A stretch of 64,000 nucleotides of DNA from Mobula hypostoma (Eukaryota). The notes beneath the pieces were generated by a model, which ran no database searches, had not been told where the DNA came from, and worked only from the letters and a program-made list of their open reading frames with translations. The position numbers and the translations under genes are program-made. Of this stretch, positions 26,201 through 53,200 are shown one piece after another; the stretch's first letter is position 1; each line of letters starts with the position of its first letter. The stretch is from the NCBI RefSeq assembly GCF_963921235.1, contig NC_086097.1, positions 155,374,001 through 155,438,000 on the forward strand, written 5' to 3'.

Positions 26201-29200
26201 ATATGCAGGAGGGGAGAAGAGGGAAAGGGCCAGAGTGCGAAATTGAAGAGAAGGGAAGGAAGAGGAGAAGAAAGTTCCAGAACTTGGAGAAATCAATGTT
26301 CGTGGCATTAGATTGGAAGCTACGTAAAAGGAGTAAGAGGTGCTGCTCCACAAACCTGAAAGTGGCGTCGTCATGGCAGAAATCAAAGCTGTCAGAGTGA
26401 GTTTGTTTGGGTATGTGATTTGTTTACACTTAAATGACTTTGGCCACCAGACTTCAATTTGACAATGCGCTTCCTAAAAATGAATACCAGATGCTTCTGG
26501 CACCATAGTTTGACCAGATGCTGTAGTTTCAAAGACAGTATTACCTATACATAGCTATAGCTTTTTAAGTAGCGATTGCCTTTGTGTTTAGCATATAAAT
26601 ATCGAGCCCACATTGAGCTAGCAGACCTTTCTGCGGAAAGCGTCTCCGTCTGTAAGGTGCCTGCTGTTCCTTGTTGTGTAGAGTAAAGAAGCTGCTTTGT
26701 GTCTACCAGTGACTCTGTGTCTCCGCTGATTTCATCCATGCTACAACAGCCATGGAACAACATGTTGGAATAGGAATTAATATTGTTGGTCACTGATGAA
26801 TTCTGCTTTTTGTGGATAGAGCAGAGGTACTCAACCAAACAGTGCCCAATCTACAATAGATTTCACCAAGCTGGAGAAGGCTGCACCAAGAGGGCTGGTA
26901 ACAGCAGGTGAAGACAACAGCTTCACGGGTGGTGTTGCTTCACCCGGAAGGGCTGTTTGAGGCCCAGAATGAAGGTGAGCGAGGAGGTGAACGGGTAGGT
27001 GTAGCACCTTAGCTGTTTGCAGGAATAAATGCCTGGAGGAGATTCATGGGGAGGAACACAGAGCATAGAACAGTACAGCACAGGAACAAGCCATTCAGCC
27101 CACAGTGTTGTGTTGTGTCGAACCAGGTAAAAAGCAAATCAGAAACACCCAACCACCAATCCCTTCTACCTACACAATTTCCATATCCTTCCATCCATGT
27201 GCCTATCTGGAGGTCTGTTAAAAGCCTCTAACAATTTGTCTTTACCACCATACCAGGCAGCACATTCCAGGAATCCACGGTTCTCTCAGTAGGAAAACTT
27301 GCTGCTCACACCCCACTTGAACCTACCCCCTCTCACATTCACTGCATGCCTTCCAGTATTAGACATTTCAACCCTAGGAAACATGCACTCTTTCCACTCT
27401 ACCTACACCTATCATAATCTCATAAGCCTCTATCAGAAATTCCCTCAGCCTCTGCAGAGAAAATAACACAAGCTTATCCAGCCTCTTGTGACCGCACATG
27501 CCCTCTAAACCAGGCAGGATCCTGAGAAAAGTCTTTTGCACCCTCTCCAAGTCTCAGAGGTCACGGCACAGATCCCTATGGAACTCCACAAATTTCAGGC
27601 CTTCTGCTCCAATAAACCCCTTCAATCACAACACACTGTCTTCCATGTGCAAGCCAGTTTTGAATCCAAACAGCCAATTCGTCATGACCCCATGTATCTT
27701 AATTTCTGATTAGCCTCCAATGAGGGAATTTGTCAAACACCTCTCTAAAATCCATGTGGACAAGATCCATAGCCCTACTCTCATGCATCTGTCTTGATAT
27801 CTTGTCAAAAAAACTCAATTAACTTGGTAAGGCATGATCTGCTATGCACAAGACCATGCTGGCTCTCCCTCATTGGACATGGGTCTTTCTGCTATGCAAT
27901 AGGAGAGGTGAGAAGACAGAATGTGTTGGAAAGCCACACGGCCACAATGACAATATGCAAACTCCCATCAAGTTTCTGCTATCAAGGCTGATTTACATTT
28001 CCACTCAATCCCGTTCTCCTGCCTTTTACCCGTAACCTTTGCATTGACTGTACCTGTCAAACGCTGCTTTAAATATAACTTAGCAACTTGGCCTAAACAA
28101 CTATCTGTGGTCATGAATTCCAGATTCACCACCCCCTGGTGAAAGAAATTCCACCCAATCTGTCTTCTATAGTCATATCTCTATCCTGAGGCTGCACTCT
28201 CCAGTCTCAGACTCTCCTATTGGAAACATCATCTTCACGATCACTCTATCCAGGCCTTTAAATATTTGATAGCTTCCCCAATTTGAGATTCCCCCTCATT
28301 ATTCTAAACTCCAATGAGTACAGGCCCAGAACCACCAAACGCTTCTCATATGTTAACTCCTGACTTCCTGGGAGCATGCTGGTGAGCCTCCTCTGGACCT
28401 TCTCCAATACCAGTACATCCTTTCTTAGATATGGGGCCCACTACTACTTAGACTCCAAAGATCTGAAAAAAGTTGGACCTGGACCCACCAACTACCATTC
28501 ACCCCCGCCATGCTGGAATGACTCCAAACTTACCATTGTTGGAAACATGTGGTGTCACTTTCTGATCATTGTCGTCTTTGACTCCAAAAACCTGCACCTT
28601 CACAAGTGGGTCCACCACCGAGCTGGGTTTCGCCTTGTTTGTCTTGGGGAGTTGCTGGGCAGAGAGGACCTGTGGAGAGGCGAGGACATGATGTGAGAGT
28701 CGACTGGTGCAACAGTAACTTAATGTATTTGATGACTGGATGATATTAACAATCGAGGAACACAGAGTACAGGGCAGTTAAGTCCCTTCAGCCCACAATG
28801 CTGTGCTGACCTTTTAAAGAAGATTTAGCATTATTTGTCACGTGTACATCAAACACAGTGAAATGTGTCATCTGTGTCAACAACCGACAGACCAAGGGCA
28901 GTCTGGGGTGAACCGTAAATGTTGCCATGTTTCTGATGCCAACTCAGCATGCATACAACTTAGGAATCATAAGCCAAACATCTTTGGAAGGTCGGAGGAA
29001 ATCCATGTGGTCATGGGGAGAATGTACAAAGTCCTCAGAGACAGTGGCTGGAATTAGAACCCAATCTTACAGCAAGCACTGTAAAATGCTATGTTGATCG
29101 TTACATCACTCTGCTGCACAACCTCCCTTAATTAACTCGAAATGTAATGCTAACTAATCCCCTCTGCCTGCACATCATCCCTATCTTTCCATTCTCTGAA

Positions 29201-32200
29201 CACTAATGTGCCTATCTAAAAGCCTCTCATATCTGCTTCCACCATCTCCCCTGACATCCCGCTCCAGACACCTACGGCTCTCTTAAAAAAAAGCATGATC
29301 TGTACAAGCTGTTACGTACCCCGTAACTGGGTTGCCAAACCAGCAGAAATGGATCACTCAGTTGGAGTCTGGAGTACTAGAACTAAGAAAGTTTTATTAA
29401 AGAAACAAGCAACACAGTAATCGAAAGGATAATAAATGCAACAGTTCAGTGATGATAAACACACATGTGCACAGAATTAAGATAACAGCATCAATCAAGC
29501 TCTATCGTTGTCTAGGGGTAAATGACCAAATTTCAAAATGACTCAAAGTTCAGTTCGCAGTAATCATTGCCATGGCGATGGACAACGTGGGGGAAGAGAC
29601 AGAGAGAACAGGAACAACTGATCATTCAGAACACTGCTTCACTCACAGACCAGCGAGATGGCTCACAAACAGCTTTTGGGCGGGTCCTTGGTGATGTCAC
29701 CTGAGGTCACCGACTGTGACCCCTCCTCCAGATGCGGTCGATCCTCTGCAGTGAACCCGGCACCCAGGCAAGGGCGGACACACACCGGGTTCCCGCTGAT
29801 CGTACCTTTCCACCCTTGTCGTTGTCTGATGCTTCTCACCCACTCGTGAGAGGCGCACCGCTTCCAGGGTCTCGTTACCTCGGGTGGCGTGTGTCCCTGT
29901 CTTAGCGAACCTGTCCCTTTTTATCCCCCTGCTGGGGTATCGCCTGTCCATCACTTCAAACAGTTCAGGGTTCAAAGGGGGGGAGCCGCTCCAGACAGCT
30001 CTCTCTCCCACATCCCTTCATTACACGTCTCCAGACGCTGCTCCATTGTTCCTTATCTCTCCTTCCCCTGAGGGCAGGTGGCAGACCAACTGCTGATGCC
30101 ACTGAAGCTAGCCCAGGCCAGCAAACATCTTAATTTTATGTGTATTCTCGTAACAAAGCCCTTTGAACAGCCTCTCTCATCTTGAATATATGCCCTCTGA
30201 TAATACGCATTTTGAACAAAGGAAAAAATATTGTGTGTCCACTATCTCTATACCTCTCGTAATTTTATAAACATATCAGAGCTCCCCTCAGCCTCTGACA
30301 CTCCAGAGAAAAGCAACCCAAGTTTGTTCAACTTCCCTTAATCGTGCATGCCCTCTATTCCAGGCACAGTGCTAATGAACCCCTTCTGCACCCTCTCTAA
30401 AGCCTCCACACTGTTCTTGTGATGGGTTGGTGTGACTTGGTAGGCTGAAGGGACAGTTTTTATGCAGCCCAACCAACGGTGTTTATCCAACATTTCCTGC
30501 TCTTACCAGCACGCTCAGCTTCTTTCTGTTCAGCCAGAGTCTCATCTGGATCCTTGAGGCACACGTTGTCTTACGCTTCCTCAGGAACTTAGGCTTCAGG
30601 ATATAACCAGAGAAACCGTTGTTTCGAAATTTACTCCGGTAGATGTCCATCTCCTGCCCAAAGGTCTGAAAGTTCACGGCCACTGCAGGCATTGTGGTGG
30701 AAGTGCAGAAGGAAGAGGGTGGGGAGGAGAACCAGAGGGAGGATAGAGTGTTGTGTGGGAGAAGAGGAGGAAGGATGGGCAATGGAATGAAAGGAGAGGG
30801 TGTGCGCATGTCATTGAGAGAGAGAGAGAGGGAGAGAAAATGAGAACATTTTTAAAAACATTTCATTATCACCTCTGCACTGAATATCAGCAAGTAATAA
30901 ATGTGTTTGTAGCTGCGGTGATTACAAGGAACTGAAACAGTTACTGGGTTACCATTCTGTGTGGTATCAGACATAGTTTGGTACTGAACAATCTCCCAAT
31001 TAAAAGCCAATTGAGTTGTACACACAAACCGATCAGGAGCTGCATTGGTGTTCGGCAAGGGTGGTTGGGTGGGATGGGGAATGTACAGGCAAATTCTTGG
31101 AAAGTATCCAGGGAATCTGGGCTGACTAGGATCCTGTGCATAACCAGTGATTGGGGGTGTTAATACTTTACTGAAGCCTGTCTTCCCTGTGAGTTGGCTA
31201 TAATGGGAGAGTGTGAGTCAGGGACTCCCATCCATGACGTGGTGTGTGAGAGTGTGTATCTCTAAGGGTGTGTAGCATTTCGATTGTGTGTGTGTGTATG
31301 TGAGAGATTCAAAAACAGTTACTCTCCCCAAGATGTCAGATATGAGGTTTGCATCCATGATGGGGTGTGCGCGTGATGTGCATGCATGTCCATCTCTCTG
31401 GTGGGGGTGGGTGGGTGTGTGTGTGTGTGTGTTCGTGTTCATGTTCATGTTCGTTTTGAGCGGGTGGAGGATGGAATGAGGGAAGGTGGTCCTTACGGGA
31501 GAAAGGAATGCTGGTTGAGGTGGTAGCAGAGCCAGTCAGGAACATAACGGCCAGTATTTACACTCAATGCCTTGGCTGTGAGGGCAAGCATAATGACTTC
31601 TTCACCAGCCTCTCCACATGTGTCAGTGACCACTCGACTTGCACCTCGATGTCCCTCTACGTCAACACTCCTTAGGTCTGTGCTACATACTCTGCAAGTT
31701 TTATCGCAATTTGAGCTCCCAAAAGGCATAACCTCACACTTGTCTGTCCCCTTTGGCAGCAGGGTGGGGGACGGATGATTGAGAAAGGACCAAAAAGAGT
31801 CTAGCCTGAATGTGGTGGACACCTCTGACCTCTAACCCCAGTGATGAAGCTCCTCAAGGGAAAGCTCCCAGAAGGCTTTTCAGGGTCAAGATCAGGGAAT
31901 AAAGTCCACACCATCTGGGCCACTCCCTTTTTTCAATGCTGCCATCGGGCAGGAGGCACAGGAGCCAGAGGATGCCTCACCCCCTGGTGTAACGACAGAA
32001 GAGGCATAATGTTATGTGACTGGAGGAATAGATAGGGGTGATGTCAGAGGTAGTTCCATATTTTGCTTAGGGAATGGTGAGTGCATGGAACATCCCTCCA
32101 GGGGAGGTGGTAGAGGGAGATGCACAAGGGACATTGAAGAAGCTCTTAGAGAGGTGCATGGATGATAGAGGGAAGCAGTAGATTGACATCAGAGTGGATG

Positions 32201-35200
32201 AAAAGGATTGTACAAAGTCAGGGCCAAAGGGCCTGTGTTCTATGTTCTCGTAGCTTCTTCCCCACTGAGACCAGATGACCATATTGCATAGAGGCAGAAT
32301 TAGGCCATTGGGCCCATCAAGTGTGGTCTGACATTTCATCATACTGATCTATTATCCCTCTCAACCTGTTTATCCTGGTTTCTCCCATAACCTTTGCCTG
32401 CCATCAGTTTCATGAACCTTAGTTCTGTCTCAGACTATATTTGGCTACTTGGCAAATGTTATTTTGCTTAACATTTATTATGCCTCATGTATAACATAAG
32501 TTAACCTAAATTTATATCATTTACAGTTGTGGATATTTTGTAATGTAAAATATTACGGCTGTAAAAACTTAATTTTCATGTTGTTTATACGCACGACAAA
32601 TTGTGTTTACATAGTGCACAGAAAAACCATGCGATGCAGTCGGCTGATTTGTTTGACAGACAGGCAGGAGTGATCTAATCAGGGTCCGCTTATGATGCAG
32701 GAAGGTGAGGCAGTGCAAGATGGACATTTCCACTGCCCAATGCCGGGAGGCAAGGGTTGGGTTTGGGCGATCAGATGTTCAAAGGAAGAGCTGGCGACAC
32801 AGATGACAGGTTTACCTATCTGGTAGCCGGCGTTCCACATGTCAATGGCAGAGTAGTTCGGCGAGTCTGTCTTCCAGTCTTCTGGATATACCCTGTCCAG
32901 TTGTTGGGCATCGCACTGGAAAGTGGAGCCTGCAAACAGAAAATGTGTTTGTTGGAATATAAAGACAAAAGATTCTGTAAATGCTGGAAATTCAAAGCAG
33001 CGCGCAATAAATGCTTGAGGAATTCAGCAGGTCAGGCAGCATCAAATGAAAGGAATTAACAGTCCTGATGAAGAGCCTCAACCAACTGCTGAGTTCCCTA
33101 AGCATTTTGAGCCATCTCTCCTTGCCAAGTTCAGGCTTCCAAGCTTCCTGCCAGGACAGAAAATCTGACCATATGACATGGGAGCACAATGAGGACATTC
33201 AGCCCATTCAGCCTGCTGCAACATTCCATCGTGACTGATCTATTATCCCTCCCAATCTCATTCACCTGCCTTCTCTCTGTAACTTTTGACGGCCTTATTT
33301 ATCAAGAACCTATCTCCCTTCGGTTAAAATATACCCAGTGACTGTCTCTACAGCCATCTGTGGCAATGAATTGCATAGATTCACCACTCTCAGGCCAAGG
33401 AAATTCCTTCGCATCTCTCTCCTAAATGGACTGTTCTATTCTGAAGCTGTGCCCTCTGGTCTAGGACTCTCTCACGACTGGAAACATCCTTTCCACGTTC
33501 AGTCTATCTCGGCATTTCAATATTCGATAGATTTCGATCAGATCTCCCTCTCATTCTTCTAAACTGCAGCGAGTACGGGTTAAGAGCCATCAGATGCTCC
33601 CACTGCTCTGTGCACCCACCAGCTGATTTATGTCCCTCTGTATCCTGGGGTGACCTTCCTTGCTATCTACGATTCGAACAACTTTTGTATTGTCTACAAA
33701 CTTAGGAATCAGATCACCTACATTGATAACAGTATATTACAAACAACAGAGGTCCCAGCACCAGACCGCTTGTTACAAACTTCCAGTTGAAGGAACACCT
33801 GTTCAGCACTATCCTCTGATTCCTGTGACTTCATATGTTGTCCTTCCAGTCTTCCAACCATTCTCCCTGCAGTTTCAAATCGCCTGCATTTTTGAGTTTC
33901 TCACAGATGTTGCCTGACTTATCAATAAACCAATAAACGCACCACTGAGTACATTCAAAAGGCACGCTGCCATCAGGAAGTACCATCCATTATCAAAGAC
34001 CCTCTCCATCGAGACCTTGTTAATCCAACATATTTTTGTTAGTTCTATTGTATTTCTTGATTTTCTGTAAATGTCTGCAAGAAATTGAGCCTCAAGTTTG
34101 TACGTGTTGGGCCTACATGTACTTGGATAATGAAGTTACTTAGACTTTGACTTGGTTCACCTGTTACTTTACATTGCACAGAAACTATATTTCCTTCATC
34201 AAACATTGCTGTCATTTCACTGTAATTTATTAAAGTCAAACATTAACACTGGTTTACTCCCATCATTCCACGTTTGCAAGTAACTGCTAATTCCATCCCA
34301 GATCTTCATTTCTACAGCTTAGCTAACTATCAAGTTCAGAGAGACTGCTCTGTAGTTATTGGCTCTTTTTTTGAGAAACATGATGGAACAGATTTTATCA
34401 ACACACATAAAAAATGCTGGTGAACGCAGCAGGCCAGGCAGCCTCTGCAGGAAGAGGTACAGTCGACGTTTTGGGCCGAGACCCTTTGTCAGGACTAACT
34501 GAAAGAGAGATAGTCAGGGATTTGAAATTGGGAGGGGGAGGGGGAGATCCAAAATGATAGGAGAAGACAGGAGGGGGAGGGATGGAGCTAAGAGCTGGAA
34601 AGTTGTTTGGCAAAAGGGATACAAGGCTGGAGAAAGGAGAGGATCGTGGGACGGGAGGCCTAGGGGGAAAGAAAGGGGGAGGGGAGCCCAGAGGATGGGC
34701 AAGGAATTATAGTCAGAGGGAGAAAGAGAGAGAGAGAAAAAAAGGGAAATAAATAAATAAGGGATGGGGTACGAAGGGGAGGAAGGGAATTAACAGAAGT
34801 TAGAGAAGTCAATGTTCATGCCATCAGGTTGGAGGCTACGCAGACGGAATATAAGGTGGTGTTCCTCCAACCTGAGTGTGGCTTCATCTTGACAATAGAG
34901 GAGGCCATGGATAGACATATCAGAATGGGAATGAGACATAGAATTAAAATGTGTGGCCACTGGGAGACCCTGCTTTCTCTGGCAGACAGAGCGTAGGTGT
35001 TCAGCGAAACGGTTTCCCAGCCTGCGTCGGGTCTCGCCAATATATAGAAGGCCGCATCGGGAGCACCGGACGCAGTATATCGCCGCAGCCGACTCACAGG
35101 TGAAGTGTTGCCTCACCTGGAAGGACTGTCTGGGGCCCTGAATGGTGGTGAGAGAGGAAGTGTAAGGGCATGTGTAGCACTTGTTCCGCTTACAAGGATA

Positions 35201-38200
35201 AGTACCAGGAGGGAGATTAGTGGGAAGGAATTGGGGGGACGAATGGACAAGGGAGTCGCGTAGAGAGCGATCCCTGCGGAAAGCAGGGGGGGTGGTGAGG
35301 GAAAGATGTGCTTAGTGGTGGGATCCCATTGGAGGTGGCGGAAGTTATGGAGAATTATATGTTGGACCCGGTGGTTGGTGGGGAGGTTGGTGTGGACAAG
35401 GGGAACCCTATTCCTAGTGGGGTGGTGGGAGGATGGGGTGAGAGCAGGTGTGCATGAAATGGGAGAGATGTGTTTGAGAGCAGAGTTGATGGTGGAGGAA
35501 GGGAAGCCCCTTTCTTTAAAAAAAGGAGGACATCTCCTTCGTCCTGGAATGAAAAGCCTCATCCTGAGAGCAGATGTGGCGGAGATGGAGGAATTGCGAG
35601 AAGGGGATGGCATTTTTGCAAAAGACAGGGTGGGAAGGAGAATAGTCCAGGTAGCTGTGCGAGTCGGATTTTATATTGGCAGAGTGAAGCCTTTGAACTT
35701 GATATATTTCCAGTTTCCACTTACCTGAGTCCTGCACCAGTTCATTGAACTTGTTTTCCACGAAGGACAATATCTCATAGGAGACCTGGTTGCTCATGGC
35801 ACCCTCAATCCTGTCGGAGGGGAGGATGTTGCAGTTGATGAGCAGGCCGGGCAACTCCTTGACTCGGTACAGCTTTGCATCCTGGGAGGAAGAGGTCACA
35901 GACACACAGATTGTCCTTCCACAGTTCACTGAGCAACCTTCAGTATCAATAAGACCAAGGATATGATGGTGGATTTGAGGGAACACACACCAGTCCTCTC
36001 CTTGGGGTCAGCACTGTTCCGTCATTAAAGACTCCTGTCACCCTGTGATAATAGATTTGATTCCTTTTCTGAGCAAATCAATCTTGTTGCCAGTGAGTGC
36101 TGTCTTAGGTGTTTAGACCAGTTACAAGGTCTTTTGGAGGCTTTACTCAACCCTCCTGGGATCTCCGCACATCTCCAGCTCTGGCCAAAGTTGTACAGCA
36201 GGGAAACAGGCCATTTGGCCCATCTTGTCCATGTCACTGGATTTGCCCAGTGAGCTGGTCGCAACGGTCAGTGTTTGGCCCATGGCCCTTTAAACTCCTC
36301 CTGTCCCTATTACTTAGCAAGATGCTTTTAGCCAATGCTTATGCCCCTGCCTCAACCGCGATCTCACATAGCTCATTCTGAAAACACTCCTGGCATGAAA
36401 AAGATACCCTTGGTGTCCTTTAGAAATCTTTCAGTTCTGATCTTAAACCTGTACCATCTTGTAGTAGCACCCTCTCCTTGGGGGGAAAAAAAACTGTGTG
36501 CTTTCTCTCTCTCTATGCACCTTATTATTGTAAACTCCTCTATTAGGTTACCCCTTAATCTCATGCATTCCAGGGAATAAAATCAACTTTGCAATCTCTC
36601 ATTGTAGCTCTAGCCCCTTAGTCTGAGCAGCATCCTGGTAAATCCCTTCTGCACTCTTCCCAGTTTAATAATACAAGACCATAAGAAATAGGAGCAGAAT
36701 TAGGCCATTTGACCCATTCAGTCTGCTCCAGCATTTCATTATGGCTGATCCATTTTCCCTCTACCCCCAATCTCCTCCCTTCTCCCCACATCCCTTCATG
36801 CCGGTTTGTGCAATCACTTTGCAGCACCAACTCCAAGATCAGAATTCAATTTCGATTGCTTTCTGTAAGGGGTTTGTACCTTCTCTGTGTGAATGCATAG
36901 GTTTCATCCAGGGTGCTCTGGTTGCCTGTCACATTCCAAATAAAATGTACGGGTTGGGCTTAGTGAGCTGTGGGCATTCTACGCTGGCACTGCAAGTGTG
37001 GCAACATTTGTGGTCTGCCCTGCAAACTTTTTTCCTGATTTGATGCAAAACGTGACATTTTACTGTATGCTTCAATGTGCATGTGTCAAAAAACACTCAC
37101 CTTTAACACAACATCCCACCTCCTATGCTCAATGCCCTGACTGATGAAGGCAGCAAATTGCCTCTTTCAAAAGTTTCCTTCTGAAAAGTACTATTAACAC
37201 AAAAACATCATGCCATCTTGAAATATTTGTTCTCTAGCCAGTGAATGTGACCAGAGGACCCAGAGAAAACCCACAGATTCCACAGTAAGTGTGTATAGGG
37301 ACACCTTCTAGAGGAGCTGGGATTGAAACCTAAAATATGATGCCCCGAGCTTTAATAGTGTTGTGCTAACTGCTCTGCTACCACGGTGCACTGGCTGTTA
37401 ACACAATGACACATTTCACTCCATCTTTCTCTGGACACATGGTAAATAAAAGAATCTGAATCACTAAAGGATGGAGGGAGTGAATGAATGAGTGTGGAGA
37501 GGAAGAGGTTGAATGAGGGAGTGAGCAATCAAGGGCGAGGTGAGTGATCAAGTGAGTATGAGAGGAAGTGAATGAGAGGGAAGGAGGGAAAGTGAATATG
37601 TGAGGGAAGAGGGAGAGAAAGCGAGCATGGAGGGAGTGAGTGAGGGAGGAAATGAGTATCAGAGGGAAGGAGGGAGAGTGAGTGAGGGCGAGTGAATAAG
37701 GGAAGGAGGAGTTGATGGCGCAAGTCAGAAAATGTGGGGTCACTGGGTGAATAACTGAGCAAGGAAAAGAGAGACGGAATGAATTGGCCGGGACTGAGGG
37801 AAGGAATTCAGTGAGGTGAACGACGGAAGAGAAAGGGGACTCACCTTTTCTTGAGACTTCTGCTTTCTTGCGACCTCCTCCATTTCAGCAGCCTCATCTT
37901 CGTCCAAGGCTTCCTCGTTCTCAACAATTGTACCGATCACTCGGTTTACTCTCTTAAGCTTCACCAGGATCTTTCCCTTCAGTTCCTACATCCACCACAA
38001 GGCCAAGAAGCAACAAATCAGTCAGCATAGAGTCATACAGCATGGTAACAGGCCCTTCAGACCAACTCTTGCTGACCAAGATTCCTATTTAGAGCTACTT
38101 GTCAGTGTTTCGCCCATATCCCTCAGAACCTTTGCTGTCCATACCCCTGCCCAAGTATCATTTAAATGTTCTTCATGTGTTCACCTCTTCACCTGGCAGC

Positions 38201-41200
38201 TCATTGCATGTAATGACACTCTGAGTGAAAAGGCTTCCCCTCAGATACCTACTAAATCTATATCCTCTCCCCTGTGTCCTGCAGTTCCAGATTACTCAAC
38301 ACAGGGAAGAAGAAGCTGTGTCTGCATTCACCCGTTCTATGCCCCTCATGATTTTATACCCCTCCATAAGACTAAGACAGCTGAACAATCACGGGAGGCC
38401 AAAGGTGTCCTGTCCTGGAGGTTGGAGGTGTGTGTGTGTCTGTCTGTCTGCAAGGACATAATGAGGGAAGGGGTTTGTTTTGCTGTTGTTGTGTTACTTG
38501 GTCTATTCTGTTTTGTTGTGTTCTCTGTTGTTTTGTCTAGGATTGTGGGCACACTACTGGTATGCCGGTGCTGCAACGTGTGGGCTGGCCCAGAACATCC
38601 TTGGGTGTGTTGGTTGTGAACACAAACAATGCACTTCACTGTATATTTCGATGTGGGTGTGACAAGTAAACCTGAATCTGAATCTGGCATCACGGCCTCT
38701 CGCCACACCGTTACCGAATCCACCCATTCTCCCACCCTGTTAAATGTTTCCTTCTTCAGATTGACTTCTCATCTCGGGAGCAATCAGTAATATTTCTGCA
38801 TCATTCCGGTGTTGGTGGGCTGTGCTCCACCTTCAGTAGATCAGGCAAATGTGTCTGACAGACACTGTCCTAGGCAGAGCTCTAATGTATGTCCACAAGA
38901 CTCCCAATCGGACACAACACGGTCTTGGTGCATGGGGAGATAGCAGATGTCACAAGGTTCGCAGAAATGGTGTTCATCAGCTGGGCACTGTCTGGATTGT
39001 GCTTGTTGTTTGAATAAAGCCCACTCCGCTCCTTACCTCAGGTGAGGGCATCGTCCCAATGAAGGGCTTGTAGAGCAGCTTGTCCCCCAGGATAGATTCC
39101 ATGACCTGCACCATGACCTTCTCCTGTTCTATGCTGCAGTAGCTCCTCAACAACAGGATGAAGGGGTAAGGAGTGACCTGGAATCAAACACCACATCATG
39201 ATGGCATAGAGACCATGCTTCTGTCTACAGCAAGGCGACAATAATGAAGCACTCTGCTTCTCAGGTGACGTCCATAGAATTCCTCCTTGTTCATGGGGAC
39301 CCAGGCCTCGAGTGTGCCCACTGGTGGGAAGCAACTCTATGGTATTGGTATATTATTGTCACATGGACCAAGATACAGTGAAAGGTTTGTTTTGCATATT
39401 ACTCATACAGCTTAAATCATTACACAGTACACTGAAACAGAACAATGTATTAAAAAAATGCAGAATAAGATGAGTGATGTTGATCGAGTGAATAACCAGA
39501 GGGCAGAAATGGCTAATGCAAGGGGGACATTATTTGAAGGTGATTGGAGGAAAATACTGCATGGGGGTATGTTAGAGATAAAAATTATTTTTACACAGAG
39601 AGTTGCGAGTGCATGGAAGGCATTGCCAGGAGTGCCAAATTAACTGATTAGCTTTATTCGTCACATCGACATCACAACATCAAAATACACAGTGAAATGT
39701 GTCATTTGTATCAATATAGCATGTCCTCAACTTACCAACCTATTAACCTGTACATTGTTAGAATGTGGGAGGAAACTCAGCACCCACAGGAAATTTGTTG
39801 TTTTATTCTTGTGCCAGCTGTGTCGTGTCAAGATGGTGCCAGCGTACAACACTCACTCAGTCAACATCTTTCATACAACGAAACGGCTTATTTAACTTTT
39901 TTGATGCCTGTTTTTTGTTTTAAACATCTTTCTGGAACTGTTAGAGCCTTTGATTTAGTTTGGAGATTAGCTGAGAGATCTGGCACTTTGCAGCCATTGA
40001 GAATAATCTGGGGAATGAGTGTGAACTCAAGCTTGAATCTCGAGACCACAAAGTGAAGAAACTTCGAGACTGGTCACAAGCTGAAGTTCGACTACAGTTC
40101 ACTGCTGAAAGCATCCATTATTTGTTGATTAAAGCATCAAGGATGATTAAAACATCAAGGAGAATGCAGAAGGCAAGCGAGGGTTTGGGATCCTTCTGCC
40201 GGAGAAGGAGCCTGTGTGGCCGATCGCTCTGTTTTTAAGCAAACAATGACAAAGCAGTGTCTGGATTCCAGAGCTGTGAGGATTCAAAGCAATATGATTT
40301 GGTGTGTATTTCATATGTCCCTTTATCTGAAGGAACGACGTGTATGTGTTCATAGCAGCTGATACCTGGAATAGATGGAGCATCTTATGGTCAAAGCTCC
40401 ACTCATTTTCCTGCACTCTAGGGAAAAAAATTCTAACCTACTCAACATTTCTGTATTAGTCATGATATGGAGTTAAGGTGATCATTACTTGATTGGCAGT
40501 CATATTAAGTGACAGAGCAGGTTCAAGTAGCTGAGTGGTGCACTTTCTGCCTAATCTGTATACTCCTATTTAAGTTCCAATTGACACAGCCTGTGGAGTC
40601 TACATCTGCAGAGGGTTGTAGAATCATCCAGCACCATCGCGGGAACTGCCTTCCCATGATCGAGGACATCTTCAAGAGGTAGTAATCTCAATAAAATGGC
40701 ATCCATCAGTAATGGCTCTCACCCTCCAGGATGTCCCCTCTTCTCATTCCTACCGTCAGGGAGGAGGTACAGGAGCCTGTCGACCATACTTAATGATTCA
40801 AAACAGCTTCTTCCACTTCACCTTCAAATCTCTGAATAGTCCACGAACCCATGAACAACCATTTTATTTTGTACTCTTTATTTATATCATAGTTTATCAT
40901 TTTTTAATGTCTTTATACATTGTACTGCTGCTGCAAAGCACGATATTTCACAACATCAAACTTATGAGTAATGCAGTGCTTAGTTTAATGCTTTACAACA
41001 TCAGCAATCACAATTGGGGTTCAATTCTTGCTGCTGTTTGGAAAGGAGTTTTCACGTTCTCCACATGATCATGTGGGTGTCCTCCAGATGGTCCACGTTC
41101 TTTCCACATTCCCAATGTGTGCGGGTCAGGGTTTGAAGTTGTGGGCAATCTATGTTGGTGCCAGAAGAATGATTAAACCTTCAGGCTGCACCAGCATATC

Positions 41201-44200
41201 ATCGGACTGCGTTGGTCATTGTCACAAAGCATCGCATTTCACTGTATATTTCGATGTACGTGTGACAAATAAAGCTATTCTGTAATCTTTTAATTTTACT
41301 TATATTAAACTTGATTCTGATTTTATTATCCCTGGTTACAAAAGCATTATTGAATGATTGGAGTACTGCTAATACTGTATTTCTCTTTCATGAGGGATAA
41401 ATCAAGTAATGACAGTTCAGTTTGATGTTCATGGTGTACAAATTATTGGAATCAGTTCTGAGGAACATTCTAAACTTTTAATTGCAAAGGGCACTTCGTA
41501 TCCTCTTGAAATCTGAAATGGCTGCCACAAGGGGGCACAGGTTTAAAGTGCTTGGGAGTAGGTAAAGAGGAGATGTTGGGGTAAGTTTTTTTTACGCAGA
41601 GAGCGGTGAGTGCGTGGAATAGGCTGCCGGCAACGCTGGTGGAGGCAGTTACGATAGGGTCCTTTAAGAGACTTTTGGATAGGTACATGCAGCTTAGAAA
41701 AATAGAGGGCTATGGGTAACCCTAGTAATTTCTAAGGCAGGGACATGTGCAGCACAACTTTGTGGGCCGAAGGGCCTGTGTTGTGCTGTAGGTTTTCTAT
41801 GTTTCTATCTAGGGCCAGACAGTGTGGATTTGTTACAGGTAGTGTGTTGCTTTTGAGGAGATAGTAAGGTTTCTAAAGCCACTGCATTTTATGGGGTCAA
41901 TAAGGACAATGTCAAGCTCATAGTGATAGTCATAGTCATACTTTATTGATCCCGGGGGAAATTGGTTAAGATCCCGGGGGAAAGCTTCTTGACAGGGTCT
42001 TATGAGACAGGCTGTTTAGAAAGATAGGTCCAAGTGATCAGAGAGAGAAACAAAACTGGCTGAGTTACAGGCAGGCGGGATGGGTGACAGGGAGGATATT
42101 ACTTTTGGCATAATTCCATACAGGATATTAATGTATTAGAGAGGGAATGCAATGCAGATGTTTGCAGATGACACAAAAATTGGCCATGTGGTTAACACTG
42201 ACCTCAGAATCAGAATCAGGTTTATTATCACCAACATATGATGAGAAACTTGTTCTTTTGGCAGCAGTGCAGTGCAAGACCTTAAAACTTATGAGGTCAC
42301 AATAAATAAACAGAGACATACATACATAATAGATAAATGACCAGTCAGACAGAAAGAGAGATAGTGCAAAAGAGGAATAGTGAGGGGATTCAGAGTCCAT
42401 TCTGATGGCACGTGGGAGGAAACTGTTTCTTAATCACTGAATGTGTGTCATCAGACCCCTGTACATCCTCACTGATGTTAGAAATGAGAAGAGGATATGC
42501 CCTGTACGGTCAGGGTCCTTAGTAATGGATGTGGACTTCTTGAGACACTGGTTCTTGATGATGTCCTTGATGACATGGAGGCGTGTGACTGTGATAATGT
42601 GATTAAGTTTGTGAGGATGTAGACAAGACTAAGAAGAAAGCTGTCTGTAATAAGGGAACAGGCCCTGTATGCTCGGGGTCCTTAGAAATGGATGCAGTTT
42701 TCTTGACACACTGGCTCTTGCTTGTCCTTGATGGCATGGAGGTTTGTGCTTGTGATGGAACTAGCTGAATCTCAAACCCGCTGCAGCCCCTTGTGAACCT
42801 CCATACCTGACTGTGATGCTCTTCTGTCAGAATACTGTTCATGATACAGGGGATGACATACATGATCCAACCAGTTGTCAAGTGACAAATGGAATTTAAT
42901 CTGGAGTAGTATGTGGGTGAAGGTGGTGTGTGGCACACTCGTCTTCATTGGCCAAGGCAATGAAAACAAGAGTTGGGACTTGGTACCTCAATCCTACAAA
43001 ATGTTGGTTCGACCTCACTTGGAGTAGTGTGCAGTCCCATTCACCATGCGAGAGTAAGGATATGATGAAGTTTGTGAGAATGTAGAGAAGATTAATTAGA
43101 AAGCTGTCTGGAATGGAGGGCTTGAGTGACATTGAACGATGTTGGGACTGTTTTCCTTGGAGTGAAGGAGTCTGAGAGATGATGTTACAGAGGTTTATGA
43201 ACATATCAGAGGCATAGATAGGGGAGACAGTCATTCACTTTCCAGGAGAGGGCAGTCAAAACAAAGAGGGCATTGGTTTAAGATGAGAAGGAAGAATTTA
43301 AAGTGGACATGAGTGGTACGTTTCTTGCACAGAGGGTGGTGGGAAAATGGCATCTGCTGCCAGAGGAAGTGGGTGAGGTGGGTACAATTACAAACATAGG
43401 GCAAGTCGGGACATAATTTGGAAATATTTAGAGGGATATTGGCCTAATGCAGCCACATGGGATCATCTTGGTCAGGCATTTTGGTCAGTGTGAACCAGTT
43501 AGGCAGAAGGGCCTATTTCTGTGGTGTATAATGCTATGGATACAGTATGTAACCAAAGACTTATGCAAATTTCTACAGAAGTACTGTGGACAGCATTCTA
43601 ATAGGTTGCATTGCTGTCTGCAATGTAGCAGCCACCGTGCAGAATCAGAAAAAGCTGCAGAAAGTTGTAAACTCAGCCAGCTCTATCATGGGCACTAGCC
43701 TCCCAAGCATCGAGCACATCTTCAGAAGGCGATGCCTCAAAAATGCAGCATCCATCATTAAGGAACCCCATCATCCAAGACATACCCTCTTCTCTTTGCT
43801 ACTATCACTGAGAAGGTACTGGAGCCTGAAGACACATATTCAGCGTTTCCCCCTCCACCATCAGATTTCTGAATGGACAATTAACCCATGAACATTACCT
43901 CACTCTTTTTTCATATATTATATAGATTACAATTCTCATTGTAATTTATCTTTTTTATAGTGTACTGCTGCTGGAAAACAACAACTTTCATGGCAGCTGA
44001 CAGTGATATTAGCCCTGATTCTGATTCTGATTAAAATAAGGTGTAAGGTAATACATTTGGGGATGGACATGCACATTTCCCATCTGTAGAATTAATGCCA
44101 AATGTGAAAGATCGGTGACAGTCTCCTCATTACCCAGTGGCCCGACCCTCACTGTTACTTCCAAACACACCTTCCAAGTTACAGGAAAACCGAGTATACA

Positions 44201-47200
44201 ACACAAGAATGAGAAAATCTGCAAATGCTGGAAATCCAATCAACACAAAATGCTGAAGAAACTTAACAGGCCAGGCAGCATCTCCAGAAAAGAGCAAACA
44301 GTCAGAGTCGACAGAATTTCCTGGTGGCCAACCATTTCAATTCTACTTCCAATTCCCATTCCGACATGTCAATCGAAGGCTGCCTCTAATGCCGCACTCA
44401 GGCTGGAGAAGCAACACCTTATATTCCATCTGGGTAACCTCCAACCTGATGGCCTGAATGTATATTTCTCGAGCTTCCGGTCATTGCTCCACTCCACCTT
44501 CACAATTCCCGCGTTCCCTTTTCCCTCCCTCACCTGATTTCCTTACTTCTACGTCACCATCCTCTGGTGCTCCTCCCCCTTCCCTTTCTTCCACAGTCCT
44601 CTATCCTCCACAGTCAGATTTCCCCTTCTCCAGCCTTTTGTCTCTTTCACCCATCTGCTTCCCAGCTTCTTACTTCATCTCTGCACCTCTCCCAGTTTCA
44701 TCCATCACCTCCCACCTTGTACTTCCTCCCCTCCCCCCACCACCTTACTTTCACTTCTCATCTTTTCTCTCCCAGTACTGATGTAAGGTCTCGGGCTGAA
44801 ACGTTCACTATTTACTCCTTTCCATGATGCTGCCGAGCCTGATGCGTTCCTCCAGCATCTTGTTTGTGTTTCTACAACACAAGCTTTGCATGGAGCATGT
44901 CAGCTTACCGTAAAGGCATAATTATTTATGACTTCCATGACGTCCCGTAAGAGGACTTCTGAGGTGAGGGCGAAGCCGTGATAAATAACAGGCTCACCGT
45001 TCCGTCCATTCCAGCATTCCAGTTCCATCCAGCGGCAGCCTTTATTCAGTTCACTGATGATGAGAGAGGATAAGACATACAATATAAATACAGTACAGGC
45101 CCTTCACCAACCTCTTAATTTACTCCAAGATCAGACTAACCCTTCCCTCTCACATAGCCCTCCAATTTTATTTCATTCATGTGCCTATCTAAGAGTGACT
45201 TAAATGTTGCTAATGTATCTGCCTCTGCACAATGCCTGGAAGTCATTCTGACATTTCCCCCGCCACGACCTGTACTTTCCTCCAATGACCTTAAAATTGT
45301 GACCCGTCATATTTATGCCCTGGGAAAAGTCTCTGGTTGACCACTCTATCTGTGCCGCTTATCAGGGTCCCAGAACAGAGATCCCTGCAGAACATCATCG
45401 GTCACTGATCTCCAAGCAGTTTATGATCCAACTACGACCAGCCTCTGTGTTTTTTGGGCAATCCAATGCTGAATCCAAAAAGCCAAATGTCCCTGGATCC
45501 CATGCCTCTTGACCTTCTGAGTCCACCATGGGGAACTTCATCAAACCGAATAAACTTTGCAATGGCACAGTTAAAGAGTTATACTGTGCAGAAACAGGCC
45601 ATTTGGTCCAAACGGTCCACGTTAGTCAACATTGCAATCTGACCTCGTCTCATTTGCCATCGTTTGATCCATATCCCCATAAATCTTTCCTATCTGTGAG
45701 TCTTTAAATGTGGTTAATGTCCTGTGTCTACTTCAAACACTTCCTTTGGCAGCTTGTTCCATATACTGATAACTCTCTTTGAGAAAGTTTTGCCCCTTGG
45801 GTTCAAATGAAGTTTCTGGCCCCTCACCTTAAAACTATGTCCTCGAGTTCTTGATTTCTCAACCCTAGAGAAAAGACTGTGTGCATTCACCCTAACTGCA
45901 CTCTTCGTGATTTTACACATTTCGGCAGAATCACCCTTCAGTTTCCTGTGTTCCAAGGAAAAAAGCCCCAGCTTGTCCAACCTATAACTCAGGCTCTTGA
46001 GTCCAGAAAACATCGTTGTGAATCTCCTCTGCATTCTTTCCAATTTAATTTATCTCTTAATATTGTTTTACATGCTGTATGTAATATGTGTACTGTGTTT
46101 TGCACCTTGGTTCCAGAGGAACATTGTTTAATTTATCTAATCTGTGTGCATGATTGAATGAAAGTAAAACTGAACTTGCAGTTAAGCCCAAACTTTCAGG
46201 TAACCATGTATTTCTACTCCAAGGTCTTTCTGTTCTATAATACTCTCCAGGGTCCTGCCATCAACTGTAAAGGTACGATTATGGTTTGACTTCACAAGAA
46301 AGCAGTATCTTGCATTCATCTGAATTAAACTCCATTTGCCATTCCTCAGACTACATTCCCAGCTGATTAAGATCCCTTTGTAAATCCTGATAATCATTTT
46401 CACTGTCTATGATACCAGTAATCTTGGCAATGACCATAGCCACAGGATTTTCACTATGCCAGGCCCGCAATGATCATACACCATAAAGCAGTCAGACCTT
46501 AAGATATAGGAGCAGAATTAAGCCGGTTATTTCATTAAGTCTGCTCCATCATTCCATCATGGCTGATTTATTAACCCTCTCAATTTCATTCGGTTGCCTT
46601 CTTCCTGAAATCTTTGATATCCATATTAATCAAGAATCTGTCAACCTCCACTGTAAATGTGCTGAATGATTTGGCCTCCACAGCTGTCTGTGGCAATGAA
46701 CTCTACAGATTCACCAATCCCAGCTGAAGAAATTCCTCCTCATCTCTGTTCTAAAGAGATACCTTTCCATTCTTGGGCTCTTGCCACTGGTCCTAAACTC
46801 TCGCACTGTAGGAAATATCCTCTACACATTCACTCTCTCCAGATTATTCAAGATCCAGTCAGTTCAATGAGATTGACCTCCACCCTACTTCCCTCTTATC
46901 CTTCTCAATCCCATCAAGTACAGTCTGAGAGACATCAAACGATTCTCATACTTTAGGACTTTTGTCTTGGGATCGTTCCGGCAAATCTCCTCTGTACCAG
47001 GACATCTTTCTTTGGGAATGGAGCCTAAAAGCGCAAGGAATTTGTATGTTTTCCCCATGGCTGCATGGGTTCCTCCTGACACACCGGTTTCCTCCCACAG
47101 TCCCAAGACAAACCATTATTAGGATAATTGGTCATTGTAAATTGTCCTGGTGATTAGGTGACTGTTTACTAGATGGGTAGTTGGACAGCGTGACTCGTTG

Positions 47201-50200
47201 GGCCAGTAGGGCCTGTTCCGAGCTGTATCTCAAAATAAAACAAAAAAAATACAATTGCTCGCAATATCCCAAATGAGATCTGACCAACACTTCACAAAGA
47301 CTCAGCTGTACATCCTTGCCTTTATTTTCCAGTCCTCTTGAAATGTACTAAGACCTTTTCTGTAGCTCTCTTGAGAAATCCTAGGCTGCATTTTTCATCT
47401 CCCACCCTTTCGCATCAGCTAAACACAGACTTAAAAAAAAACCTTTGCTGCCCATTTAATCCCAAGCCCCCTTCTGCAATATGGTGCCAGTACCTGATGA
47501 TGGCCTCGGTGCTACTGGAATCCTCCAGCAGATTTGTGAGCAGGTGGATATTGTGAGAGGAAGAAATGTAATATTGATCGAGTGGCTTTGTCATGTCTTG
47601 GTAAACCTTGTCATGTTCTTGGTTGAAAATGTCCCCTCTCGGTGACATCAGGAAGAACAGAAATCCATCCTTGGTCATGAAGAAATGACGCTTCGCTAAC
47701 AAAAGAACACACTGCTATTAATGCCATTCATGTATTACCCACACTGTAATTAGGGTTATGATTTCTTAAGATTAGCTTTATTTTTCACATGTATATCGAA
47801 ATATGTACATGTGGTGAAATGTGTTATTTTCAGTTAATGACCAGCATAATCTGAGAATGTGCTGAGGGCAGCCCAGAAGTTTCTCCATGCTTCTGGCACC
47901 AACAAAGCATGCTCATAACTTACTAACCCACACCCATCCGTACTTGAAATGTGCAAGGACCTGGAGAAAAAGCACGTGGGCACAGAGAAGACGTATAAAT
48001 TACAGTCAGTGATGAGGTTTGAACCTACATCGGTGATCGCTGGCACTGTAAAATGATTGCAATCCAGAAATTTGGTGTTGAAGAAAGGTAGATTCATGGA
48101 CAAGCTTTTCTTCTCCTTGGAAGGTACTGCTTTCCCATTCATCACTGAAGAACCAGACAAGAGTCTTTGACTGCAGCCTTAGAGATGTAGCTGCCATCTG
48201 GAAGACCAACAAGGAGTTTGAAGTCTGGCTTACCAATGTGAATAAATCAGGCTAAGCTGCCAGGATGTCATACTTCCCCGAATCTACTGCCCCTTGCTGG
48301 TATAAGGGAAACTCATGAAAACAGCTGAGGCTCTTGAAAAAATGACCCGTGGCTATCTTCGAAAATAGCTAGACCTCCATCGTCGCCTGAGCAGATTTGC
48401 TCTGTACAGGGAGGTGAATAAACTATAACTTCCTTTTAGCAGCCTGGACAAGGAGTTCATTGTTGCCTGCACAGGAGAATTGCTGCTGTACAGAGATTCC
48501 AGCGACCACGTCTTATCAGCAGGCACAGATGTCTGGACAGGCAGGGAATAGAAGGCCAAAGATGCAGTGAAGATGGTTGAGTCACACCTGAGGCACTGGG
48601 ATCTGGTAGGGACAGTGGTGTCCGGTCAGGCAGAGTGGGACAATTTCCCTGCAACCCTCTTCAACAGAGATCAGGGTAGGGACAGATGCAGAATGGTACA
48701 GGAAGAGTTGTGAGCAGCTATCAAAGAAGTGCATACCAACAGGGTGGTAGGTATGGGGTAACACTGAGCTGGGATATGGTGGGAGGGTGCGCTGATACGG
48801 AAGATCTCCTGGTCCAACATCTGGCAGGGAGGTCCCCTGCACGTTGTTCTTTTCCAGATTGTGTAAAAATTTCTCGCCAAGTCTCAGTCAACCTTTATGC
48901 TTGGGGCAAAAGTGAGGCAACATCATGTCTTCTCTGCCCTGGCAGAGGGACCCTGGAACACATCCTCAGCAGCTGCCAAAAAGCCTTGCGACAAGGACGC
49001 TACTGCTGGTGCCATAACCAGCAGGATTGAGAATAAATGTGATCCAAGTGACTTTGACTATTTAATGATCACTAGTGCCAGATGGGATGTTTTGAGCATT
49101 TCAGAAACTGCAGATCTCCTGCAATTTTCATGCACAACAGTTTCAGGAGTTTACAGATAATGATGTAAAACAAAGAAAACTCCAGTCAGCAGCAGTTCTG
49201 TGGGCGAAAATGCCTTGTTAATGAGAGAGGTTAGGGGAGAATGTCGAGAGTAGTTCAAGCTATCAGGAGAGGGACAGAAACGCAACTAACCATGTGTTAA
49301 AACAGCAATATGCAGAAAAACATTTCCGTATGCACAGCACATTGAATCATGAAGTGGATAGACTGCACCACACACTACTGCCCTCTACTGTGCCTATTGT
49401 CTTGTTTATTATTTATTGTAATGCCTGCACTGTTTTGTGCACTTAATGCAGTCCCGAGTAGGTCTGTAGTCTAGTGTAGTTTTTTTTGTGTTGTTTTACG
49501 TAGTTCAGTGTAGATTTTGTATTGTTTCATGTAGCACCATGGTCCTGAAAAACGTTGTCTTGTTTTTACTGTGTACTATACCAGCAGTTATGGTCAAAAT
49601 GACAATAAAAAGTGACTTGACTTGAGTACAGTAGCAGGAGACCATGAATGTACACTCTGTTGTTACTTCATTAGATACTGGAGGTATCTAATAAAGTGGC
49701 CACTTGAGTATATGTTCTGAGGTGACAGGTCATGTGATTAAACATCCCCAAAGTGTAGGCAACACAACTTCAAGGTGATGGATGTGGCTTACCTTCCTCG
49801 TTTAATTCATACATCTGGATGAGATGTGATGCATTCTCCTGTGTCACACTCTCCCTTTGTTCCTTCCATAGGAATTCCTGGAGTTTTCCCACGCTGATCA
49901 GCTGCTCCTTGTTGCAGTAGAAATCAAAGATGGTGGTGATCTCCTTGCGGTCCGTGAGCATGTGATAAAACTCTTTAATCTCCCTGCCACAGATGGTACC
50001 GTCTTTCGCCTTGTCACATTTCTGAGGGTGGAAGTAAGGACTAGAGACAGTTACGATGAAAGAACGGCCGAAATTGTATTGCTACTGAATCTGTGCTGCC
50101 TTCACCCCAGTGAAAACAGTTCACCTCATTCAACCACTTTGCCTGAGAATATTGGGCCCTTTTATAAGAAAGTGTGCACTAGCATTGGAGAGTGTCCAGA

Positions 50201-53200
50201 GGAGGCTCATGGAAATCATCCTGGGAAAGAAAGCCTCACTGCATAAGGAACAATTGAAGACTCTGGACTGGCGCTCACTGGAGTTTCTAACAATGAGGCT
50301 GAGGGGTGGCGGGGTGGCAGGGGGAATCTCATTGAAATCTACCACATATTCCAAGGCCCAGACAGAGTGGATGTGAAGGTGATGCTTCCTATAGTGTTAG
50401 AGTCTGAGACCAGGAGGTACAGCCTAAGAATAGAAGGATGTCCCTTTACAGGTGTTGAGGGGTGATTCATTTAGCCAGAGGCTGGTGACACTATGGAATT
50501 CATTGTGACAAATGGCTGTGGAGGGCAAGTCAATGGCTATATTTAAAGCAGTGGTTGATAGGTTCTTGATTAGTAGGGGAGTTGAAGGTTATAGAGAGGA
50601 AGCAAGAGAATGCAGTTGAGAGGGATAATAAATCAGCCATGATGGAATGGTGGAAGAGACTGAATGCCTTAATTTGCTCCGATGTCTTATCTTCTTTTGA
50701 ATTTATGGTTAGTGGAGCAATGCAGAGAAAATGTCGCAGGAACTGAGCAGGTCAGACAGCATTCATGAAGAGAAGTAAACAGTCTGCTTTATGGGCTAAG
50801 ATCCTTCACCAGGACTGGAAAGGGAGGGAGCAGAAGCGAGAATATGAAGGCATAGGAGGCTGGTAGGAGAAGCTGGCGGCTGTAGCTGAGACCAGATGAG
50901 GGGGAAGGTGACTGGGTGGGGAGGTGAGGATGAAGTAAAAAGCTGGGAGATGATTGGTGGAAGAGCTGAAAGGCTGAAGAAGGAGGATTCTAATAGGAAA
51001 CGAGAGTGGACCATGGAAGAATGAGGAGGAGGAGGAGGGGAACGACAGGAAAGTCATGAGCAGGTGGGAGCAAAGCGGGTGAGAGTGGAACCATGAAGAG
51101 GAATGGAGAAAGATTGAAGGGGACAGGGGGAGAAAACACCATAAAGAAAAAAAATCTAATGTTCAGTAACATTACCCTTTCACCTCAGCTGCTCCAGCGA
51201 AAATAGTCCCAGTCTATCTAAGACTCAAGTTCTCTGGTCCCAGCAGTACATGTTCTGCAGTTTTCCAGCTTAATGACAGCATTGATGCCTGTCGCTGGTG
51301 GGTAAAGGAGAAGGAAGGTGCCGTGACATGCAGACTAGGGAGGCCTGGCTGTTAGTACAAAAATCTCACAGGCCTGGAACATCCAGTTGCGGGGAGAGAT
51401 AGATGGGACAACACAGTAGCGTAGTGGTTAGTGTAAGTACAGGGTTCAATTCCTAACACAGTCTGTCAGGAGTTTCTACATTCTTCCCATGATTGTGTGG
51501 TTTTCCTCTGTGCTCTGCTTTCCTCTCACATCCCAAGACACGTGGGTTAGGGTTAGTGAGTTGTGGGCATGCTACGTTGATGCTGACGCGTGAACTCAGT
51601 TGCGGGATGCTCCCAATGCAGTATCAGACTGTGTTGGTTGTTGACACAAATGACACATTTTACTGTATGTTTTGATGTACATGTGACAAATAAGGGTAAC
51701 TATAAGGGTTCTCATTGTGATTGCATGCATTTCCCCAGCTGATCCAGTTTACTCCCACATTCCAAAAAAAGCATGGTGACCCTTGCACACTGAGCCCAGT
51801 ACATAGATGGGCTGTATCCATCTCCAAAACAAGGTACTGTATTTCACTGTATGCTTCGATGCACACGTGACAAATAAAGCTTATCTGTCTTTTAGGCACC
51901 GCAGTAGGGTAGCGGTTAAAGTGACACTATTACACTCGAGTGGAGTTCAGAGTTCAATTCGACACCATCTGTACATTCTCCCTGTGACTGCACGTCTTAC
52001 CTCTGAGTGCTCCCATCTCCCTCTCACAGACCAAAGACGTACCAGTTAGTTGGTTAATTGGTCATTGTAAATTGTCCTGTAATTAGGCTGGGGTTAAATA
52101 GGTGTGTTGTTGGGCAGTGCACCTGAAGGTCCAGAAGTGCCTATTCCGCACTGTATCTCTCAATAACAATAATTAAATTAATTAAATCATTAAGATACAG
52201 TGTTGTACCTTGAACAGGTCCATTGCATGCATACTATCCACTTCTATATTCATCATATGCATAAACTGCTTCACTTCTTCCAGCGTCATTTTGGCGTTCT
52301 TATCAATATTGGCCTTCTGCAGGTAAAGTTGGAACAATCTGCGAAGTGATGCAAGGAAACAACTCAAGCAGTGGGGTACAGCCCCATCCAAACCCAAGCA
52401 ATGGGGTACAGCCCCATCCAAACCCAAACAGTGGGGTACAGTCCCATCCAATCCCAAACAGTGGGGTACAGTCCCATCCAAACCCAAAGAGTGGGGTACA
52501 GTCCCATGAGAGTCACACACAGTAATGCACACAAACATAGATCACAGACACACTCATGCAAACACATATACACAGACACACAGATACACAAACACAAGGC
52601 TGATGTCAGTGACAATAAACATGATTCTCATTATGTGTTCTTATACCTATAGGCTTATGTACTTCTAAGTCAGGTTACGTGACTTGGAGGTGAAGTAGTT
52701 CCCACGTGCCTGCTACCATTGACTTCTACACGGGGATGGACTTAGGTGCCAATGTCGAAGAAGACAAAGGATGAAATGGTACCCTCCCTTTCTGACATAC
52801 TTAGCAAAGGATACTGGTCCAGCTGCTCTCTCCGTTTCATGCTGGAGTTTCTGATCTTCAGTTTTGTAAGGCCATTGACCCAGTGCTGGGCCTCCTCAGC
52901 GCTGTTGGCCACCAGGTCCAGTTTAGTGTTCCTCTCCTTAAAGAGGATGGAGAAGCTGCAATCAGTGCGCTTCTCCAATATCACCTCTGACCAGTGGCCT
53001 GCCCTCACCTCTTGGATGTCAGCGATGGAGACTGGAGGGGATTGGGGGGTGGGTGGGTTAGAACAGCAACAGAGATCAGAACAAAATACTCAGATTCAGA
53101 TTAATAAACACAAGAGATTCTGCAGATGCTGGAAATCCATATTAGCACACAGAAAATGCTGGATGGACTGAGCAGGTCAGGCAGCATCGGTGCAGAAAAA

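Follow-up and report, generated by a model that had tools for sequence, protein, structure and literature searches.

The 64,000-nucleotide stretch of the Mobula hypostoma genome analysed here (NC_086097.1, positions 155,374,001 to 155,438,000; hereafter the window) carries on its minus strand a phospholipase C (PLC)-delta-type gene of 15 exons with a complete frame of 1070 residues. The gene is chimeric: its first exon is an orphan, and its exons 2-15 come from a duplicated PLCD1. Sequence comparison shows that it descends from a batoid PLCD1 and that its catalytic barrel is eroded. Its product is probably a membrane-tethered pseudo-PLC, which would bind phosphoinositides through its PH domain with little or no hydrolysis and would have arisen independently of PLCL1/2. 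If so, devil rays would hold a second and recent origin of a PRIP-like pseudo-PLC, in a genome where the parent gene, intermediates with Lys at position 390 and dozens of PH-only derivatives coexist; the path from enzyme to pseudoenzyme would therefore be testable stepwise. No paper joining Mobula, phospholipase, genome and duplication was found in a literature search outside which most subscription papers lay.

Gene structure and catalytic site

The PLC-derived part of the gene consists of 14 exons, from 56825 down to 23155, that splice in frame into 728 residues without an internal stop, with AG/GT at each intron (28 of 28 splice dinucleotides canonical). The first exon was recognised through the public protein P0002 of the same locus, mapped back to the DNA, and its final phase fits exon 2, which yields the continuous 1070-residue frame. 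The domain order PH-EF-X-Y-C2 was found in P0002 by a Pfam scan, with which the structure model and a fold search agreed. Residues are numbered here after rat PLC-delta1: over residues 311-390 the alignment between 1DJG and P0003, a copy from M. birostris, has no gaps (offset set at H311), and since the window copy runs colinear with P0003 there, the rat numbering transfers.

Two published sources name N312, E341, D343 and E390 as the ligands of the catalytic Ca2+ (PMC11174929, PMC12195575). In the window gene this ligand set is broken twice on the minus strand, by GAA at codon 45019-45017 (Glu at position 343) and by AGG at 39147-39145 (Arg at position 390). The copy retains H311, H356, K438, K440, S522, R549 and Y551. 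R390 and E343 are common to all four full-length copies, namely the window copy, a sister copy nearby in the same genome and both copies of M. birostris, which excludes an assembly error at the AGG codon. A previous sequence-only reading of the window had already reported both altered codons, the 14 in-frame exons, the gap-free X box over rat residues 311-390, the identity of the Ca2+ ligands and the retained equivalents (those listed above together with N312 and E341), and on all of these points it proved accurate; it overlooked the 342-codon first exon and the gene family to which the copy belongs.

The two substitutions are part of a much broader change. The window copy departs from the reference state at 48 of 212 near-invariant positions (at least 98% invariant among 118 PLCD1-type reference proteins, isoforms included), D343E and E390R being 2 of the 48, and its relatives at 42-43, versus 1, 3 and 3 of the 212 in the PLCD1 of Hemitrygon, Narcine and Amblyraja, respectively. 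By domain, the changed positions number 20 of 70 in the X box, 15 of 47 in the Y box, 5 of 31 in C2, 4 of 29 in the EF hands and 2 of 27 in the PH domain. Near the active site, S388, N391, H392, D318, Q319, T313, Y314, C339 and G439, among others, are replaced, each of them kept in 117-118 of the 118 references. The window copy keeps 9 of 11 catalytic residues, and at the 23% background two or fewer changes would be seen with P=0.53. Retention thus equals background, and the kept histidines are no evidence that catalysis is under selection.

Nor is Lys or Arg at position 390 peculiar to a working site. An intronless PLCL-type gene of the same genome (G000:C18:146191119-146193326; L003, L099) carries H311Y, H356K and E390R (CGA), an independent event in a protein from which both catalytic histidines are gone, and two decayed sister copies of the window gene carry K390 (AAG); a codon path from GAG through AAG to AGG is suggested. 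In Arabidopsis PLC8 and PLC9, presumed to be inactive, E390K accompanies the loss of both histidines (PMC11209554). The presence of Arg or Lys at 390 in the window gene, a PLCL-type gene and these plant proteins suggests that a basic residue here recurs as a mark of lost metal binding. The structure model, built on the public splice form without the first Y-box segment and with its low Y-box confidence set aside, is closest to rat PLC-delta1 (template modelling (TM) score 0.80 by target length); its low confidence at residues 635-646, the loop after H311, is only suggestive.

Ancestry and the amplified family

In a tree of 22 proteins, from which PLCD4, PLCZ1 and PLCL were left out, the four duplicates form a clade (100/100) with a stem of 0.46, sister to Mobula plus Hemitrygon PLCD1 with moderate support (81/89), inside the chondrichthyan PLCD1 clade (100/100) and apart from PLCD3. 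The genome's canonical PLCD1 lies on C5; all 13 of its exons that were compared are intact, and it shares 99.1% identity with the PLCD1 of M. birostris. The window gene, 66.5% identical to it, is thus not the sole PLCD1 of the species. Intron flanks of the window gene are also alignable to this gene. Of 194 polarisable amino-acid differences, 185 fall on the lineage of the duplicate, with 31 further differences ambiguous. Because 10 polarising sites put the duplicate outside Mobula plus Hemitrygon, versus none with Mobula alone and 3 with Hemitrygon, the duplication likely predates the Mobula/Hemitrygon split. No stingray copy of the duplicate was present among the best 120 of 1602 matches, and no full-length relative outside Mobula was found in these or in a 28-match search, both of annotated proteins; the named full-length relatives are all from devil rays, two annotated copies in M. 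birostris and the neighbouring copy in the same genome.

Exon 2, with the first part of the PH domain, is matched 78 times in the genome, and 4 of these matches lie at canonical PLC-delta loci; the R390 exon is matched 9 times. Three members on C76 share the first exon and the PH exons and hold later exons only in decayed form. Going by these counts, the family retains the predicted anchor and the PH domain and mostly loses the enzyme part. Three intronless PLCL-type genes were also found (C5, C18 and C91), the one on C18 being the most eroded.

Further related loci were observed across the genome. Copies of the PLCD1 PH exon occur by the dozen, clustered and many of them open, on C45, C5:121.2-121.6 Mb, C1:94-98 Mb, C52, C40, C76 and others. 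A decayed plus-strand copy with some exons gone and with K390 lies at G000:C1:155494106-155546083, with more fragments adjoining, and two PLC-delta3-like loci (G000:C91:9.78-9.81 Mb and 11.33-11.41 Mb) both have the canonical D343/H356 exon.

The first exon

The product of exon 1 has a hydropathy peak of 2.27 followed by basic residues and then by a spacer with 20% Asp/Glu. The structure model places a helix at residues 6-29 with low confidence, and its predicted local distance difference test score (pLDDT) is below 50 across nearly all of residues 1-343. The part of the exon inside the window matched nothing but itself among 1.84e9 representative sequences, no usable match bearing on its origin was obtained from the ESM Atlas, and a word search returned 3 of 4388 candidates, every one a member of the Mobula family. 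When exon 1 was compared with the sister copy, the ratio of nonsynonymous to synonymous substitution rates (dN/dS) was 0.31 (0.15-0.65). Compared with a C76 copy, from which all insertions and deletions are in frame, it was 0.69 (0.53-0.92); exon 1 thus evolves like coding sequence.

The possibility of an unrelated parent gene, represented by the exon 1 copies on C76, was discarded: each of the three examined there leads into PH exons of PLCD1 origin and then into later exons that have decayed. The 28 kb behind a copy on C21 yielded no PLC exon. The sister copy (G000:C1:155194077-155244878) has a second, intact first exon 38 kb upstream, at 155281626-155283455. This upstream exon is made of three 138-residue repeat units, a unit present once in the window copy and twice in M. 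birostris.

Selection on the reading frame

Compared with the parent PLCD1, the window copy has a dS of 0.47-0.64, a dN of 0.20-0.21 and a dN/dS of 0.31-0.45, depending on kappa, the transition/transversion rate ratio; on the assumption that silent change is split evenly, the lineage of the duplicate would have a dN/dS of about 0.6-0.8. Between window and sister copies dN/dS was 0.52-0.69, with intervals that touch 1 at kappa 2-3. Neutral change simulated at 0.10-0.25 per site is expected to bring 7-14 stops, and none of 300 runs at each level was free of stops, versus no stop in the gene. Constraint is therefore strongly relaxed yet non-neutral, and selection holds the frame open, which excludes a long-dead pseudogene and agrees with the sequence-only reading that this is not neutral decay.

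Introns of the window copy and its neighbour differ by about 2.8% (1035 of 37,121 bases; hand sum over 22 collinear blocks). Across the PH and EF regions, only 2 amino-acid-changing differences in 280 codons separate the sister copies, a proportion of amino-acid-changing differences (pN) of 0.003 versus about 0.028 in introns (P~1e-6); exon 3 has 2 differences between these copies. Two other segments, the loop at residues 313-330 (pN 0.27) and exon 10 (pN 0.16), differ at 5-10 times the intron rate. They were chosen post hoc, with P values of 1e-9 to 6e-6 against a background of 3% or 5% that are uncorrected and would survive correction for exon number. Both segments are altered in both sister lineages, sometimes at one shared codon, and they contain or adjoin S522 plus L320 and L529, the latter two described as membrane-facing ridge residues in PMC12195575. 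Diversifying selection is the simplest reading of this pattern, with gene conversion from an unseen donor as a possible alternative cause. Neither the canonical gene nor any decayed copy observed here is the donor of such a conversion.

A probable tethered pseudo-PLC and the competing explanations

As a membrane-tethered pseudo-PLC, the protein would be held at the membrane by its N-terminal helix, and its PH domain, near-frozen between sister copies, would bind phosphatidylinositol 4,5-bisphosphate (PI(4,5)P2) or inositol trisphosphate (IP3) and compete for the lipid with other proteins that recognise it, in the manner of PRIP/PLCL. Ca2+ binding may have been lost first, with Lys and then Arg at 390 serving to balance the acidic cluster E341/E343 and not to do the catalytic job of the metal. 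The barrel would persist as a folded scaffold, with its open face (loop 313-330 and exon 10) diversifying, perhaps toward new ligands.

The nearest known systems fit this proposal in different respects. With PLC-delta1 (rat 1DJG/1DJH; batoid PLCD1a P0005, P0006 and P0032) the window protein shares the domain order, the exon phases over 13 exons, its best structural match, both histidines and its identity to the genome's own PLCD1; it differs in the 342-residue anchor exon, in D343E/E390R, in the 48 near-invariant changes and in a stem, for the duplicates, about 6 times longer than the path of the parent over the same span. PRIP (PLCL1/PLCL2) likewise is built like PLC-delta around a damaged active site, and acts through PI(4,5)P2 binding while catalytically inactive (PMC12998161); by analogy, function through PI(4,5)P2 binding by the PH domain is likely in the window protein, and one PLCL-type gene of the genome also has R390. 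Unlike PLCL, a family absent from the tree, the window gene derives from PLCD1, has 14 introns and a predicted membrane anchor, and keeps H356, which all three PLCL-type genes of the genome have lost; those three hold the X and Y boxes in a single frame of 844-883 residues. Its PLCD1 exon pattern and H356 speak against descent from PLCL, and the protein may work like PRIP without being a PLCL gene. Like the window protein, Arabidopsis PLC8 and PLC9 carry a basic residue in place of E390 (E390K); they differ in having lost both histidines (PMC11209554) and in belonging to another lineage.

Several observations weigh against a tethered pseudo-PLC, and some of them would favour an enzyme. The sequence-only reading had left the choice between a PLC in which Arg takes the place of Ca2+ and a catalytically dead one that arose independently of PLCL1/2. 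In the metal-independent PI-PLC of Bacillus, the guanidinium of Arg69 lies around the cation site; this residue would correspond to the D343 position and not to E390. A literature search found nothing on calcium-free mutants at residue 390 or on Bacillus Arg69, and an engineered E390K rat enzyme reportedly kept slight activity with little Ca2+ dependence. A membrane-anchored active PLC of this kind, Ca2+-independent or weakly dependent, with R390 in the cation site and changing loops that retune substrate choice, seems quite unlikely to us. It would account for the presence in all four full-length copies, from two species, of both histidines, N312, E341 and the five phosphate/inositol-binding residues (9 of the 11 catalytic residues) next to R390/E343, for the positive charge preserved along the path from Glu through Lys to Arg at 390, for the best match of the model still being rat PLC-delta1, and for the X box past residue 330 (with E343, H356 and R390), conserved between the sister copies at a pN of 0.008; the introns flanking this segment are partly also close between the copies. 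Against it stand the background-level retention of catalytic residues, R390 in a PLCL-type gene devoid of the histidines, K390 in decayed copies and the many replacements that surround the site. The half of the choice that invoked Arg in place of Ca2+ is thus poorly supported, while the other half, a dead or crippled PLC independent of PLCL1/2, gains from the nesting in batoid PLCD1, the canonical PLCD1 elsewhere in the genome and the selected frame. Just as improbable is the fuller version in which a calcium-free vertebrate PLC, anchored for good by a newly recruited exon, has Arg390 for the metal, loops above the active site that diversify under selection, and sister copies that cut or bind different lipids; if it does cleave lipid without calcium, it would be a naturally occurring animal PI-PLC that escapes the usual Ca2+ requirement.

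D343E, for its part, is a mild, conservative change, and N312, E341 and E343 still offer an amide or carboxylate at three of the four Ca2+-ligand positions, as would be expected of a weakened and still Ca2+-dependent PLC whose permanent tether makes up for a lower catalytic rate; the anchor would increase local substrate. The guanidinium at 390 should, however, repel the cation, and 29-32% of the invariant X and Y positions are altered, so that we give this explanation little chance, less than any other considered here. A recently decaying gene, once selected and now drifting or a silent by-product of the amplified family, is unlikely, with rather more to be said for it. The relaxed dN/dS values on the duplicate lineage and against the sister copy point that way, as do the window copy being the most eroded of the four, the many decayed fragments and a stop at codon 34 of the first exon of the sister copy, an exon that the intact upstream one might replace by splicing. 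Expression evidence consists of one 250-letter contig (depth 6.2) from run X4, itself only guessed to be RNA. The match covers 52815-53031, the precise extent of exon 3, at 3 differences, and the contig letters on either side of it do not match, the pattern expected of a spliced transcript; the contig fits the window copy and its neighbour alike. In run X1 the pieces run across introns and are DNA-like. The tether likewise comes from prediction, by hydropathy and the low-confidence model. What counts against recent decay is the PH and EF conservation relative to introns, the low dN/dS of exon 1 against the sister copy, the two annotated full-length copies in M. birostris, the exon-exact contig and the concentration of differences in two segments and not throughout. 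The tethered pseudo-PLC remains the explanation that we favour.

Splice forms and features of the window

The public model P0002 uses another splice between exons 9 and 10 and encodes 1080 residues, also in frame; the 14-exon form of the sequence-only reading agrees with the M. birostris models in this splicing. In exon 10, at 35790-35850, changes specific to the window copy have made a pyrimidine-rich tract ending in CAG, the acceptor of the public model. The features are listed in Table 1.

Table 1 Exons of the PLC-delta-type gene and a related copy, in window coordinates.
Feature	Position	Strand	Content
Exon 1 (partly in window)	63133..64000; start codon 159 bases past window end	-	342 codons: predicted hydrophobic helix 6-29, basic residues, acidic spacer predicted disordered
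Exon 2	56661..56825	-	PH domain, first part; 0 of 165 bases differ from sister copy
Exon 3	52815..53031	-	PH domain, second part; in-frame deletion of 4 residues
Exon 4	52209..52338	-	EF hands
Exon 5	49793..50021	-	EF hands
Exon 6	47494..47695	-	End of EF region; H311 47555-47553; N312 47552-47550; hypervariable loop 313-330
Exon 7	44909..45053	-	E341 45025-45023; D343E 45019-45017; H356 44980-44978
Exon 8	39037..39177	-	S388L, E390R (39147-39145), N391S, H392Y; in-frame deletion of 4 residues
Exon 9	37845..37985	-	K438, G439L, K440, X-Y linker
Exon 10	35725..35881	-	Y box start, S522; hypervariable between sister copies; contains alternative acceptor of public model
Exon 11	32816..32929	-	R549, Y551
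Exon 12	30507..30682	-	Y box end
Exon 13	28534..28669	-	C2 domain
Exon 14	25603..25752	-	C2 domain
Exon 15	23155..23237	-	End of C2 domain; stop codon
Inverted decayed partial copy of exons 8-9	16766..19488	+	About 80% identity; R390 kept in exon 8 copy, stops in exon 9 copy

Intron 10 contains open frames on the minus strand at 34790-35670, which presumably resemble the GIY-YIG end of a Penelope-like retroelement.

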